From a virus, in the UHGV virus genome UHGV-1583584: a stretch of 11,684 bases of DNA. One strand, given 5' to 3'. The stretch's first letter is position 1; every line of letters starts with the position of its first letter. Position numbers and translations under genes: made by a program. Shown here piece by piece: positions 7,240 through 11,197 of this stretch. A model generated the notes under the pieces. That model did no database searches, was not told the DNA's origin, and worked only from the letters and a program-made list of their open reading frames with translations.

Positions 7240-7620
7240 TCAGTCAGCCCAACCTGATTTCGAGTTTATTTGGGTTTCTGACATTGTGTATTTCTTAATC
7301 GTGTCATCGTTAAAAAGAATAGTAAGTTCTTTTTTCGTACCGTTCGTTCCATTATGGAATAATCCATAGAATGGAATAAAAGTGGTGCCATTAACTTTTA
7401 CTTTTGCAAAGGCGTACTTCCAGATCTCGTTTCCACTGTCAGTATATGAAACAGCATCAGGAGAACCAAAGTAAGATTTAACCTCATTCTTGGTTGTTTT
7501 ACCTTCCTGAAGTTTAGACTGGACACTAATTTCAGTTTCATTTTTGAGTTGCTGGTTGCCTGAAGAAGCACACCCAGCCAATACAGATGCCATCATGGCA
7601 GCGATTAGGATTTTTCTCAT
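7240..7620 (-). CDS. Prophage-encoded lipoprotein (signal peptide with lipobox LAGC); possible BamE/SmpA-OmlA-like fold; candidate lysogenic-conversion or superinfection-exclusion factor
   Basis: The N-terminus MRKILIAAMMASVLAGC has a canonical lipobox, with Ala at +2 after the Cys (no Asp inner-membrane retention signal). The mature part has a pattern resembling BamE (GxTKxEV...GSP...WxY...LTILFxxDxIKxY), which is a motif-level impression only. The gene is AT-rich relative to its neighbours and is followed by a terminator. Confidence 0.8.
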   Translation of the reverse strand: MRKILIAAMMASVLAGCASSGNQQLKNETEISVQSKLQEGKTTKNEVKSYFGSPDAVSYTDSGNEIWKYAFAKVKVNGTTFIPFYGLFHNGTNGTKKELTILFNDDTIKKYTMSETQINSKSGWAD

Positions 7621-7849: not shown

Positions 7850-8539
7850 TTAACCATGCTTCCTGTACGTCTGCGGCATGCTTCCAATGACCTTACCGAA
7901 TATGAACACCCGGTTCATCTCGTCTTTCTCGATCGGGTCCCACGGCGAGTAGCTCTTGTTATCAGAGATAACCAGCAGCTTATCCTTCATCATTTGAAGA
8001 CGTTTTACATGGGCAGTGTCGTCGTACAGAAACGCATAGATGCCATCACCGTCGAAAGATTTAACAGTGATATCAACGAACAGCAGGTCACCTGGTTCGA
8101 TCGTCCCTGACATGCTGTCACCTCGCACGTTAATGATGCGGATATTTTCCGCCTTCCTGCCATCGAACATGTGACGAGCATCGTCAAACGAGTACTCAAC
8201 CGAGCGTAGAACTTCTACAAACTCACGGTTGATTACACCTGGCCCGGCACTGACTTCTATATCAAGAACGTCAATTTTGAAGTATTTGGAATGGCTGACA
8301 GTTGATTGTATTGGTTGCACTGTACTGTCTGACATATTTCCAACGCCAGAAGATAACCATTCTGCGCGCACACCCAAAGCGTTCGCGATCTCCACGATTT
8401 TAGTTGTTTGGTTAGCTTTCCCTGTTTCGATTTTCTGAATAGCAGCCTGGCTAACCCCGACCAAATCCCCAAGCGCCTTTTGTGTAAGGCCTCGCGCTAA
8501 TCTGGCTTCTTTAAGTCTTTCTGAGAGTGTTGTTTTCAT
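7850..8539 (-). CDS. cI: CI-type prophage repressor (N-terminal XRE-family HTH, C-terminal LexA/S24-like autopeptidase domain)
   Basis: The N-terminus LKEARLARGLTQKALGDLVGVSQAAIQKIETGK is a typical HTH. The C-terminus contains GDSM (Ser nucleophile motif) and VKRL (Lys), with a candidate Ala-Gly cleavage site in EVSAGPG. It is transcribed divergently from the cro-like gene. The sequence differs from lambda CI, so this is a different immunity type. Confidence 0.9.
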   Translation of the reverse strand: MKTTLSERLKEARLARGLTQKALGDLVGVSQAAIQKIETGKANQTTKIVEIANALGVRAEWLSSGVGNMSDSTVQPIQSTVSHSKYFKIDVLDIEVSAGPGVINREFVEVLRSVEYSFDDARHMFDGRKAENIRIINVRGDSMSGTIEPGDLLFVDITVKSFDGDGIYAFLYDDTAHVKRLQMMKDKLLVISDNKSYSPWDPIEKDEMNRVFIFGKVIGSMPQTYRKHG

Positions 8540-8943: not shown

Positions 8944-9483
8944 ATGCAACCACTTACATACCAACAGACTAGCGGATTTATTCCGACTGCGGTGATAAAT
9001 CGTTCTCAAACAAAACAAGCTCCAGGCCACGAAAAAATCCGTGATGCCGTCCGCGCCTGGTCGGCTGTAGATAATCAGGATGTCGTTGCCGCACTCATTG
9101 TGAATGAGTATCGGGAGCAGGGCGACGGCACCATCGATTTCCCTGATGATGTCAGCCGTGCACGCCAGAAGCTGTTCCGCTTCCTCGATAACAAATTCGA
9201 TTCTGAAAAATACCGAAATAACGTGCGTGAACTGACCCCGGCAATTCTGGCGGTACTACCGCTGGAATATCGCGGTTACCTGGTTGAGCAGGATAGCTTC
9301 ATGACTCGGTTGGCTGAAATGGAAAAGGAACTCAGTGAGGCAAAACAGGCTGTCATTCTCAACGCACCACGCCACCAGAAACTGAAGGAAATGAGTGAAG
9401 GTATTGTGTCGATGTTTCGTGTGGACCCGGATCTGGCTGGTCCATTAATGGCGATGGTGACCACCATGCTGGGGGCAATATGA
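8944..9483 (+). CDS. YdaT-like protein in the cII position (function uncertain: regulator or toxin-like)
   Basis: 179-aa ORF with SD AAGGAG 5 nt upstream. The segment LTPAILAVLPLEYRGYLVEQD resembles the YdaT family core as recalled from the Rac prophage ydaS-ydaT pair. It is not lambda CII (97 aa). Confidence 0.6.
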   Translation: MQPLTYQQTSGFIPTAVINRSQTKQAPGHEKIRDAVRAWSAVDNQDVVAALIVNEYREQGDGTIDFPDDVSRARQKLFRFLDNKFDSEKYRNNVRELTPAILAVLPLEYRGYLVEQDSFMTRLAEMEKELSEAKQAVILNAPRHQKLKEMSEGIVSMFRVDPDLAGPLMAMVTTMLGAI

Positions 9484-9569
9484 CAGGTTCAGAAATGGCG
9501 AAAGTCGGTCTGCGGGAACAGAACCGACTTTCAGGTGCAAATCGTAACACACTCATTGCGGGAGGAATT

Positions 9570-10499
9570 ATGGCAAACACTGCTGAGATATTCAATTTTC
9601 CAGTGCCGGATGCGGCACAAAAGGAGCCGCGCGTGGCAGATCTCGATGATGGTTATACGCGCATTGCAAATGAGTTGCTGGAAGCTGTGATGCTGGCCGG
9701 ATTAACACAGCACCAGCTTCTGGTCTTCCTGGCTGTCATGCGCAAAACATATGGCTTTAATAAAAAACTGGATTGGGTGAGCAACGAGCAACTTTCCGAG
9801 TTGACCGGGATATTGCCGCACAAGTGTTCTGCTGCAAAAAGCGTTCTGGTAAAGCGTGGGATTCTTATTCAGAGCGGGCGGAATATCGGCATTAATAATG
9901 TGGTCAGTGAATGGTCAACATTACCCGAATCAGGTAAGAAAAATAAAGTTTACCTGAAAGAGGTAAATTTACCTGAATCAGGTAAGAAAAGTTTACCCAA
10001 ATCAGGTAAAGGCGTTTACCCGAATCAGGTAAACACAAAAGACAAACTAACAAAAGACAATATAAAACCTTTTTCGTCCGAGAATTCTGGCGAATCCTCT
10101 GACCAACCAGAAAACGATCTTCCTGTGGAGAAACCAGATGCTGCAATTCAGAGCGGCAGCAGGTGGGGGACAGCAGAAGACCTGACCGCCGCAGAGTGGA
10201 TGTTTGACATGGTGAAGACCATCGCGCCATCAGCCAGAAAACCGAATTTTGCAGGGTGGGCTAACGATATCCGCCTGATGCGTGAACGTGACGGACGTAA
10301 CCACCGCGACATGTGCGTGCTGTTCCGCTGGGCATGCCAGGACAACTTCTGGTCCGGTAACGTGCTAAGTCCGGCCAAACTCCGCGACAAGTGGACCCAA
10401 CTCGAAATCAACCGTAACAAGCAACAGGCTGGCGTGACAGCCGGAAAATCAAAACTCGACCTGACAAACACTGACTGGATTTATGGGGTGGATTTATGA
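9570..10499 (+). CDS. O: Replication initiator O (hybrid: non-lambda N-terminal iteron-binding domain, lambda-type C-terminal P-interaction domain)
   Basis: Start assigned to the ATG at 9570 (MANTAEIFNFPVP...), preceded by GGAGG at 9561-9565, rather than the ORF-track start at 9480 that overlaps the upstream gene. The C-terminal part, about 130 aa (...WGTAEDLTAAEWMFDMVKTIAPSARKPNFAGWANDIRLMRERDGRNHRDMCVLFRWACQDNFWSGNVLSPAKLRDKWTQLEINRNKQQ...DWIYGVDL), matches lambda O as recalled. The N-terminal domain differs. Confidence 0.9.
   Translation: MANTAEIFNFPVPDAAQKEPRVADLDDGYTRIANELLEAVMLAGLTQHQLLVFLAVMRKTYGFNKKLDWVSNEQLSELTGILPHKCSAAKSVLVKRGILIQSGRNIGINNVVSEWSTLPESGKKNKVYLKEVNLPESGKKSLPKSGKGVYPNQVNTKDKLTKDNIKPFSSENSGESSDQPENDLPVEKPDAAIQSGSRWGTAEDLTAAEWMFDMVKTIAPSARKPNFAGWANDIRLMRERDGRNHRDMCVLFRWACQDNFWSGNVLSPAKLRDKWTQLEINRNKQQAGVTAGKSKLDLTNTDWIYGVDL
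9921..10032. repeat. Origin of replication iterons: five 17-bp inverted-repeat iterons, consensus TTACCCGAATCAGGTAA, inside the O gene
   Basis: Copies at 9921-9937, 9950-9966, 9969-9985, 9993-10009 and 10016-10032 (TTACCyGAAwsAGGTAA), immediately followed by an A-rich segment (10033-10080). This is the architecture of lambdoid ori. The repeats encode the repeated LPESGKK-like peptide in O. Confidence 0.8.
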
Positions 10500-11197
10500 A
10501 AAACATCGCCGCACAGATGGTTAACTTTGACCGTGAGCAGATGCGCCGGATCGCCAACAACATGCCGGAACAGTACGACGAAAAGCCGCAGGTACAGCAG
10601 GTAGCGCGGATCATCAACGGTGTGTTCAGCCAGTTACTGGCAACTTTCCCGGCGAGCCTGGCTAACCGGGACCAGAACGAACTGAACGAAATCCGCCGCC
10701 AGTGGGTTCTGGCTTTCCGGGAAAACGGGATCACCACAATGGAACAGGTTAACGCAGGAATGCGCGTAGCCCGTCGGCAGAATCGACCATTCCTGCCATC
10801 ACCCGGGCAGTTTGTCGCCTGGTGCCGGGAAGAAGCATCCGTTACCGCCGGACTGCCAAACGCCAGCGAGCTGGTTGATATGGTTTACGAGTATTGCCGG
10901 AAGCGTGGCCTGTATCCGGACGCAGAGTCTTATCCATGGAAATCAAACGCGCACTACTGGTTGGTTACCAACCTGTACCAGAACATGCGGGCCAATGCGC
11001 TGACTGACGCGGAATTACGGCGTAAAGCTGCCGATGAGCTGACCTGTATGACCGCGCGAATTAACCGTGGTGAGGCGATACCTGAACCAGTAAAACAACT
11101 TCCTGTCATGGGCGGTAGGCCTCTAAATCGTGCACAGGCTCTGGCGAAGATCGCAGAAATCAAAGCGAAGTTCGGACTGAAAGGAGCAACTGTATGA
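10496..11197 (+). CDS. P: Replication protein P (DnaB helicase loader)
   Basis: The 233-aa product MKNIAAQMVNFDREQMRRIANNMPEQYDEKPQVQQVARIINGVFSQLL... matches lambda P as recalled. Its start overlaps the O stop (ATGA). Confidence 0.95.
   Translation: MKNIAAQMVNFDREQMRRIANNMPEQYDEKPQVQQVARIINGVFSQLLATFPASLANRDQNELNEIRRQWVLAFRENGITTMEQVNAGMRVARRQNRPFLPSPGQFVAWCREEASVTAGLPNASELVDMVYEYCRKRGLYPDAESYPWKSNAHYWLVTNLYQNMRANALTDAELRRKAADELTCMTARINRGEAIPEPVKQLPVMGGRPLNRAQALAKIAEIKAKFGLKGATV

Follow-up and report, generated by a model that had tools for sequence, protein, structure and literature searches.

The DNA analysed here (the window, 11,684 nucleotides) represents the early region of a lambdoid prophage, in which a truncated integrase gene, exo (YqaJ-type), bet (RecT-type) and gam are accompanied by genes for a cI-like S24 repressor, a YdaS-like protein in the cro position and a YdaT-like protein in the cII position, and by the replication genes O and P. 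Within the O gene, directly after the part that encodes the N-terminal domain (which ends at 9920), lie five 17-bp palindromes of the form TTACC-N7-GGTAA (iterons), followed by an A-rich tract and by the sequence for a C-terminal domain, with P next in line (Table 1). A search of the whole window against Rfam returned 0 matches, and a terminator scan of 9300-10200 found none.

Table 1. Features of the replication region, with positions counted from the first base of the window
Feature	Coordinates	Strand	Remarks
Specificity cassette	9561..10062	+	ribosome-binding site, N-domain, iterons and the larger part of the A-rich region
O-type replication initiator gene	9570..10499	+	309 aa; GGAGG precedes the ATG at 9570
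O N-terminal origin-binding domain (predicted)	9570..9920	+	aa 1-117; specificity type not that of lambda
Predicted recognition helix of a winged helix-turn-helix	9816..9857	+	aa 83-96, PHKCSAAKSVLVKR; helix assigned by inference
Iteron 1	9921..9937		TTACCCGAATCAGGTAA; extra, distal copy, 29 bp upstream of iteron 2
Iteron 2	9950..9966		TTACCTGAAAGAGGTAA; variant centre (GAAAGAG), arms intact
Iteron 3	9969..9985		TTACCTGAATCAGGTAA; perfect palindrome, 8+1+8
Iteron 4	9993..10009		TTACCCAAATCAGGTAA; position 7 is A
Iteron 5	10016..10032		TTACCCGAATCAGGTAA; adjoins the unwinding region
A-rich region, presumed DNA unwinding element	10033..10079		two 15-nt ACAAAAGACAA units (direct repeat); homologous to the lambda AT-rich region
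Lambda-type O C-terminal domain, presumed P-binding half	10080..10499	+	95% nt / 96% aa identity to lambda O
Helicase loader gene of the lambda P type, counterpart of the O C-domain	10496..11197	+	Pfam Phage_lambda_P, E 9.4e-62

The O protein matches the Pfam family Phage_rep_O (PF04492) at residues 21-115 (E 1.4e-34), over the full length of the profile (1-95 of 95). In alignments its Met1, encoded by the conserved ATG at 9570, coincides with that of lambda O and of Klebsiella O, while an in-frame ATG at 9480 provides an alternative start that yields the 339-residue form given in RefSeq and in some phage records. By tblastn, the N-domain is 48.7% identical to that of lambda O, 65.7% to that of P22 gp18, 61.5% to that of SEN34 and 83.8% to that of Klebsiella phage GZ7. 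The P protein shares 228 of 233 residues (98%) with lambda P, and the succession of a lambda-type O C-domain and a lambda P-type gene places the pair among the O/P replication modules.

The integrase open reading frame is truncated, so that this prophage may be defective and its origin unused in the present element: the frame stops after 260 residues, matches the 172-position catalytic-domain model at positions 2-72 only, and departs from the lambda Int sequence after ...ALHVD. Moreover, IS insertions and pseudogenes occur in its relatives at argU, so that the replication module could be an intact-looking but unused relic whose origin no longer fires here. We regard this as rather unlikely: both O and P are full-length, and the block formed by the iterons and the A-rich region occurs with 100% identity in plaque-forming isolates, eight distinct phages (nine records, 4A7 occurring twice) that include Lambda_4C10, 4A7, 1W, 3W, Perceval and Turner. 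Nor would a defect in excision settle the matter, since the replication module of an excision-defective prophage can still fire in situ.

The five iterons, with start-to-start distances of 29, 19, 24 and 23 bp, lie exactly where an earlier reading of this DNA from its letters alone (the sequence-only reading) had placed them. The pattern TTACCYRAAWSAGGTAA has five exact sites on the + strand and eight matches on both strands with at most two mismatches, against a chance expectation of 0.01, and a count of eight was reached in 0 of 200 shuffles. When their flanks are included, four of the five become 19-bp palindromes, TTTACC-N7-GGTAAA. The consensus proposed in the earlier reading, TTACCyGAAwsAGGTAA, does not cover iteron 4, which requires R at position 7. 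The same reading took the second iteron to be degenerate; its centre is indeed variant, but the arms are intact and 74 of 78 related viral contigs have the sequence with this variant centre, because of which iteron 2 is a conserved variant and not a product of decay. As for the number of copies, iteron 1 is absent from 3 of the 10 unique loci of the TTACC class, which possess the 19/24/23 set only, 6 of the 10 have an additional iteron 29 bp farther upstream, and totals of four (locus L130), seven (L164) and nine (L012) iterons occur within the class. The distal fifth iteron is an add-on of the TTACC lineage and, given this variation in copy number, recalls the additional iterons of Stx phages, among which iteron number also varies (PMC7466680). 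The commonest spacing across iteron classes is 20/24/23, that of the TTACC class being 19/24/23, and the four proximal iterons of the window, at 19/24/23, have spacing of the type associated with an O-some.

As the repeats are situated inside the O reading frame, they could in principle be a coding repeat only, specifying a peptide (LPESGKK...) in a flexible linker of O and having no role as DNA sites, and three copies (1, 3 and 4) do encode LPESGK, LPESGK and LPKSGK. The iterons occupy frames 0, 2, 0, 0 and 2, however, and copies 2 and 5 thereby encode YLKEV and YPNQV, the DNA being conserved where the peptide is not; this occurrence in two frames argues that the repeat is kept as DNA. Every copy is, moreover, palindromic, which is a property of DNA, and the constraint is concentrated in the arms: across 89 loci, which comprise 33 distinct sequences, a single one of the 40 arm columns is variable and mean entropy is 0.005 bits, against 0.237 for the iteron centres and 0.651 for the spacers between iterons, with an ascertainment bias that is small, since the spacing filter dropped just 1 of 90 TTACC-N7 loci. 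In where they lie, how they are spaced and the A-rich tract beside them, the repeats also match the mapped origin of lambda. On account of the two frames, the palindromy, the invariance of the arms and the lambda-like placement we reject the peptide-only explanation as very improbable, and regard the repeats as putative DNA sites for O.

The A+T-rich region begins directly past the last iteron, as the sequence-only reading had it. Bases 10020-10079 have a GC content of 0.30-0.35 and an AT skew of up to +0.77, an excess of A on the top strand. The tract opens with ACACAAAAGACA, which is exactly the start of the lambda AT-rich region and is common to the window, lambda, P22, HK97 and GZ7; ACAAAAGA begins 3 nt past the last iteron, a placement found in 50 of the 69 O-type origins examined. 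Identity over the A-rich region is 77% (nt) to lambda, 85% to SEN34 and 87% to GZ7. The segment 10033-10062 (ACACAAAAGACAAACTAACAAAAGACAATA) is common to the cassette relatives described below and to lambda-type phages, and its first 12 bases are common to lambda, 933W, P22, HK97 and GZ7.

When O is compared with its lambda counterpart along its length, identity is low at first (59% nt and 48% aa for the N-domain, aa 1-117; 54% nt for the iteron block; 32% aa for the linker, aa 118-170) and then rises to 95% nt and 96% aa in the C-domain (aa 171-309), in accord with the earlier description of a lambda-like C-terminus joined to an N-terminus of another kind. Megablast identity to 933W begins at 10033, the first base past the last iteron in both phages, and this base matches the first one past the annotated iteron 6 in the 933W record. 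On the other side, the block 9561-10062 is found at ~80% identity in Klebsiella phages GZ7 and 6 LV-2017 and in Enterobacter and Kluyvera prophages. Its ends are 9561 and 10062 by blastn in loci L009 and L010; in L163 and L165 the right end is also 10062 and the left one is farther upstream (9494 and 9491, respectively), while in L164 two extra iterons split the span into 9561-10032 and 10023-10062. Because these endpoints recur, one specificity cassette of ~500 bp can be delimited, which comprises the ribosome-binding site, the N-domain, the iterons and the greater part of the A-rich tract and which is found, from phage to phage, with no fewer than three C-terminal/loader types. The proposal that domain and iterons had been exchanged as a unit is thus borne out by the presence of the block beside an unrelated C-terminus, and needs widening only in that the unit takes in most of the A-rich region as well. 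Given that ACACAAAAGACA is conserved in nearly all O-type origins, this stretch is likely to be the homologous crossover site at the right-hand joint, where cassettes would be connected to different C-domains.

This combination is widespread. A 466-nt query spanning the N-domain and iterons has a 100% match in the argU tRNA-site prophage of E. coli strain 720632, and the module is 98-100% identical in ~15 isolated coliphage genomes, the value for the whole O gene being 98-99%. The N-domain and iteron segment is present in 2,421 of 5,426 complete E. coli genomes (~45%), the exact O protein is encoded by 634 public contigs in its 339-aa form and by 294 in its 309-aa form, and the 90% cluster of the protein has 7,825 members. 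The idea that O is a recent and rare recombinant of lambda and an unrelated phage, with an unusual pairing of domains, would suit the sharp break in identity to lambda and 933W where the iterons end, but is refuted by these prevalence data and by the recurrence of the same N-domain/lambda-C pairing at 98-99% identity in ~15 isolated phage genomes and in 70 of 80 IMG/VR contigs, and with virtually no probability left to it is rejected. O is a very common natural allele, and can be called 'hybrid' only relative to lambda.

The N-domain is predicted to contain a winged helix-turn-helix. A single-sequence AlphaFold2 model of aa 1-122, which is of low confidence (mean pLDDT 42.5) and gives no more than a rough hint of secondary structure, has a helix at aa 82-95. 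Sequence and profile searches of the PDB revealed no significant relative, the best profile match, itself non-significant (E 0.18), being to the MarR-type winged helix-turn-helix of AdcR over the expected helix-turn-helix segment. For a wider view, an O N-domain profile was scanned against the IMG/VR collection and a genome set holding one per species, reference phages were added, and the best palindromic repeat family just past the N-domain was taken for each locus (Table 2). Among the 73 unique O N-domains, the motif at the start of the putative recognition helix and the iteron half-site class agree with an adjusted Rand index (ARI) of 0.88, against 0.10 for C-terminal type and iteron class, figures to be read with the helix classes having been defined after the alignment was inspected and with physical linkage contributing to the association, as the N-domain adjoins the iterons. 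The TTACC-N7 iteron class is found with lambda-type, GZ7-type and other C-termini, and the TTAGC class with all three reference C-types. The gap between the two ARI values is further support for the joint exchange of N-domain and iterons, and the earlier interpretation has held in every part that sequence could test.

Table 2. Helix-start motifs of O N-domains and the iteron classes that accompany them
Helix-start motif	Iteron class	Unique loci with this class
PHKCSAAK	TTACC-N7-GGTAA	10/10
T(K/R)CSTA(K/R)	TTTAC-N7-GTAAA (P22 type)	6/9; two without a repeat family, one TTACC-N6
HTH(V/I)C	TTAGC-N7-GCTAA (HK97 type)	17/18; the other is phi80, loosely caught by the pattern
PRQKVN	GTCAC-N7-GTGAC	13/14; one without a repeat family
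SRQNVN	GTCTC-N7-GAGAC	5/5
P(V/E/I)KR(C/V)	lambda type	14/15; one without a repeat family

O-type proteins of different phages are known to have different iterons within their genes (PMC8022706). In lambda, O dimers bind 19-bp inverted repeats and a 40-bp A+T-rich region opens on supercoiled DNA (PMC5043065; PMC7466680), whereupon the complex of origin and O takes up P and DnaB (PMC5043065). Viewed in this light, the anatomy of the locus, its homology, the modular exchange, the co-variation of helix and iterons and the constraint at the DNA level, on which our case rests, make it highly probable that the region is the theta-replication origin of a lambdoid prophage together with its initiator, with binding and firing predicted by homology. 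O would be made from the rightward early transcript and, since the inverted-repeat structure of each iteron implies binding by dimers, dimers of its N-terminal winged-helix domain would bind the TTACC-N7-GGTAA palindromes inside the O gene. The array would then wrap or bend into an O-some, which in conjunction with negative supercoiling would open the adjacent A-rich region (10033-10079). Recruitment of P-DnaB in lambda runs via the C-domain of O, and the lambda-type C-domain here would similarly recruit a complex of DnaB with the P protein encoded at 10496-11197. Each of these steps, from the binding of O through unwinding to the firing of the origin, is deduced from homology and from patterns seen on comparison.

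The origin belongs to a well-known kind but, as far as we could find, has apparently not yet been described as such. In four records that we inspected (Klebsiella phages 6 LV-2017 and GZ7, strain 720632 and phage Perceval) the iterons are without annotation and the O gene is labelled O or 'replication protein', yet the module is present in nearly half of the complete E. coli genomes. A search of the accessible literature for the iterons, variant forms included, found no relevant paper and none containing the iteron sequence, and a study of co-transfer in lambdoid phages (PMC9836094) contains nothing specific on O or the origin. Tentatively, TTACC-N7-GGTAA iterons and the PHKCSAAK helix might define an experimentally uncharacterised specificity class that ranks with the most frequent types of lambdoid origin in E. 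coli. The locus is otherwise an ordinary and very common instance of a textbook modular pattern, and no concept is changed by it. It does provide a clean natural case of a DNA-binding domain that is kept together with its own sites and swapped against helicase-loading partners, and the matched table of helix motifs and half-sites could guide specificity engineering or the annotation of origins.

Among known systems, lambda shares with the window the order of a gene in the cII position, O and P, the location of the origin in O between the N- and C-domains, palindromes beside an A-rich tract that starts with ACACAAAAGACA, a similar spacing (20/24/23 versus 19/24/23 here), and C-domain and P sequences that are 96% and 98% identical, respectively. 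Unlike the window, lambda has an N-domain that is only 48% identical, four rather than five iterons, of the form TCCCTC-N5-GAGGGA, and an A-rich tract that differs in the middle; the iterons are thus non-lambda, as the sequence-only reading held. The helix PVKRCNEAK that marks rep-lambda specificity (lambda, 434, 21, 933W) is replaced by PHKCSAAK, so that the window falls outside this specificity. Stx phages 933W and P27, with six lambda-type iterons, also have extra distal copies beyond the four of lambda, which footprinting found to bind O weakly (PMC7466680), and their C-domain and P are ~97% identical to those of the window, whereas the iterons and N-domain of 933W are lambda-type. Phage 82 yielded no origin record among the matches of at least 95% identity in the phage collection. 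Lambda-82 hybrid O proteins exist and require a lambda-like C-half, as is seen here, which makes the classical phage 82 type a lead for the specificity of the window.

Klebsiella phages GZ7 and 6 LV-2017 and the Enterobacter and Kluyvera prophages share with the window the N-domain type (84% aa), the start of the A-rich tract and five TTACC-N7-GGTAA iterons at 29/19/24/23. In this group, unlike in the window, the C-domain of O is unrelated (17% aa) and is followed by a gene for a DnaC/DnaI-type loader rather than by P. Gene 18 of Salmonella phage P22 has the closest classical N-domain (~60-66% aa); its half-site is likewise TTTACC, its A-rich tract opens in the same way and its four iterons stand at 20/24/23, but its C-domain is unrelated and its partner is the DnaB-type helicase gp12. 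The P22 iterons are TTTACC-N5-GGTAAA, with half-sites 2 bp closer than in the TTTACC-N7-GGTAAA of the window, where the wider spacing holds in 5 of 5 copies and sets the specificity apart from that of P22; the helices are PTKCSTAKN and PHKCSAAKS, respectively. Should the P22 and TTACC-N7 initiators fail to cross-react, specificity would reside in half-site spacing, that is, in the geometry of the dimer, and not in base contacts.

Set against phi80 and HK97, as the earlier reading had suggested, the window has iterons that differ from those of both. The repeats of phi80 (TTCCCGAAAACGGGAA) are distinct and the N-domain of its gp15 is 39% identical, which excludes a common specificity. HK97 gp54 and the O proteins of SEN34 and phiES15 share with the window the 5+7+5 geometry of the palindromes, their spacing and the same kind of shuffling, the TTAGC class occurring with all three C-domain types, and differ in the half-site (TTAGC, in iterons TTAGC-N7-GCTAA) and in the helix, HTH(V/I/C). 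Farther afield, the initiators of iteron plasmids (RepA/pi family) likewise act on a repeat array that adjoins an A+T-rich region, but their iterons are direct repeats bound by monomers (PMC5043065), whereas those of the window, like those of lambda, are inverted repeats.

The conserved start of O is the ATG at 9570: GGAGG precedes it, Met1 of lambda O lines up with it, and no start further upstream exists in the Klebsiella homologue. In RefSeq and in several phage records, O is instead annotated as a 339-aa protein from an in-frame ATG at 9480, which overlaps (ATGA) with the stop codon that ends the YdaT-like gene.

Within the gene, iterons vary in number as well as in sequence. Among loci of the TTACC-N7 class found in the window, one has lost a 24-bp unit and retains four iterons (L130), another has gained two such units to reach seven (L164), and a third carries nine, with a 48-bp unit repeated in tandem and the 29/19 spacing present three times (L012); all of these copy-number changes are in frame. 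Two further classes, GTCAC-N7-GTGAC and GTCTC-N7-GAGAC, have their own motifs at the start of the predicted recognition helix (PRQKVN and SRQNVN, respectively), occur in L029, L031, L034, L036, L042, L058, L077 and other loci, and are each found with several C-terminal types. Most iteron classes keep both the 20/24/23 spacing and the start of ACAAAAGA 3 nt past the last iteron.

Two longer O proteins (367-373 aa), from Enterobacter sichuanensis (L014) and Klebsiella grimontii (L016), have N-domains 69-75% identical to that of the window and the helix motif AATRCSTAKN. Neither a palindromic repeat family nor ACAAAAGA was detected in the 300 nt after these N-domains, and the origin may therefore lie elsewhere or be of another form. 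Phage D2 (L003, OM475427) has two ORFs at 501-1522 in place of one O: the first 246 nt are 99.6% identical to the window allele, the remainder is lambda O with lambda iterons, and the junction between the alleles, near window position 9816, is frameshifted. This split gene is either a chimeric assembly from two phages or a dead recombinant. An O gene 100% identical to that of lambda was also present in genome contigs, mostly short or of low coverage, assigned to unrelated bacteria (L044, L047-L057), including Bradyrhizobium, Leeuwenhoekiella, Neobacillus, Oceanobacillus, Paenibacillus, Shewanella and Pseudomonas; these look like assemblies contaminated by lambda DNA.

The window prophage is probably excision-defective. 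Its integrase ORF has the full arm-binding domain, matches the catalytic-domain model only over positions 2-72 of 172, and departs from lambda Int after ...ALHVD, with a stop at 108. The ORF next to the cI-like gene matches the BamE domain weakly (E 1.6e-4), short of the Pfam cut-off, and is possibly an accessory gene of the lipoprotein type. In lambdoid phages, defence or accessory cargo is often located just after P. The E. coli 720632 prophage that matches the 466-nt N-domain/iteron query at 100% (L172) has, in order, P, a truncated ren and a NACHT-domain gene (12693-14384).

Features located on the minus strand of the window
Feature	Coordinates	Strand	Remarks
Truncated integrase ORF, 260 aa	108-890	minus	domain match and lambda Int comparison
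126-aa ORF	7240-7620	minus	just downstream of cI-like gene (7850-8539)
Perfect 10-bp stem, 13-nt loop	9532-9523 with 9509-9500	minus	downstream of promoter-like site
Promoter-like site, TTGAAT-17-CATAAT, TG-extended -10	9595..9567	minus	overlaps O start codon

The promoter-like site and hairpin at the start of O make up a candidate oop-like unit on the minus strand (9500-9595), in which GCCATTTCTG follows the 10-bp stem and the T-run after the hairpin is weak. An Rfam search of the window gave no match for this candidate. Its position and orientation are the same as those of lambda pO/oop RNA, and are likewise shared with the annotated M3 RNA of phi80.
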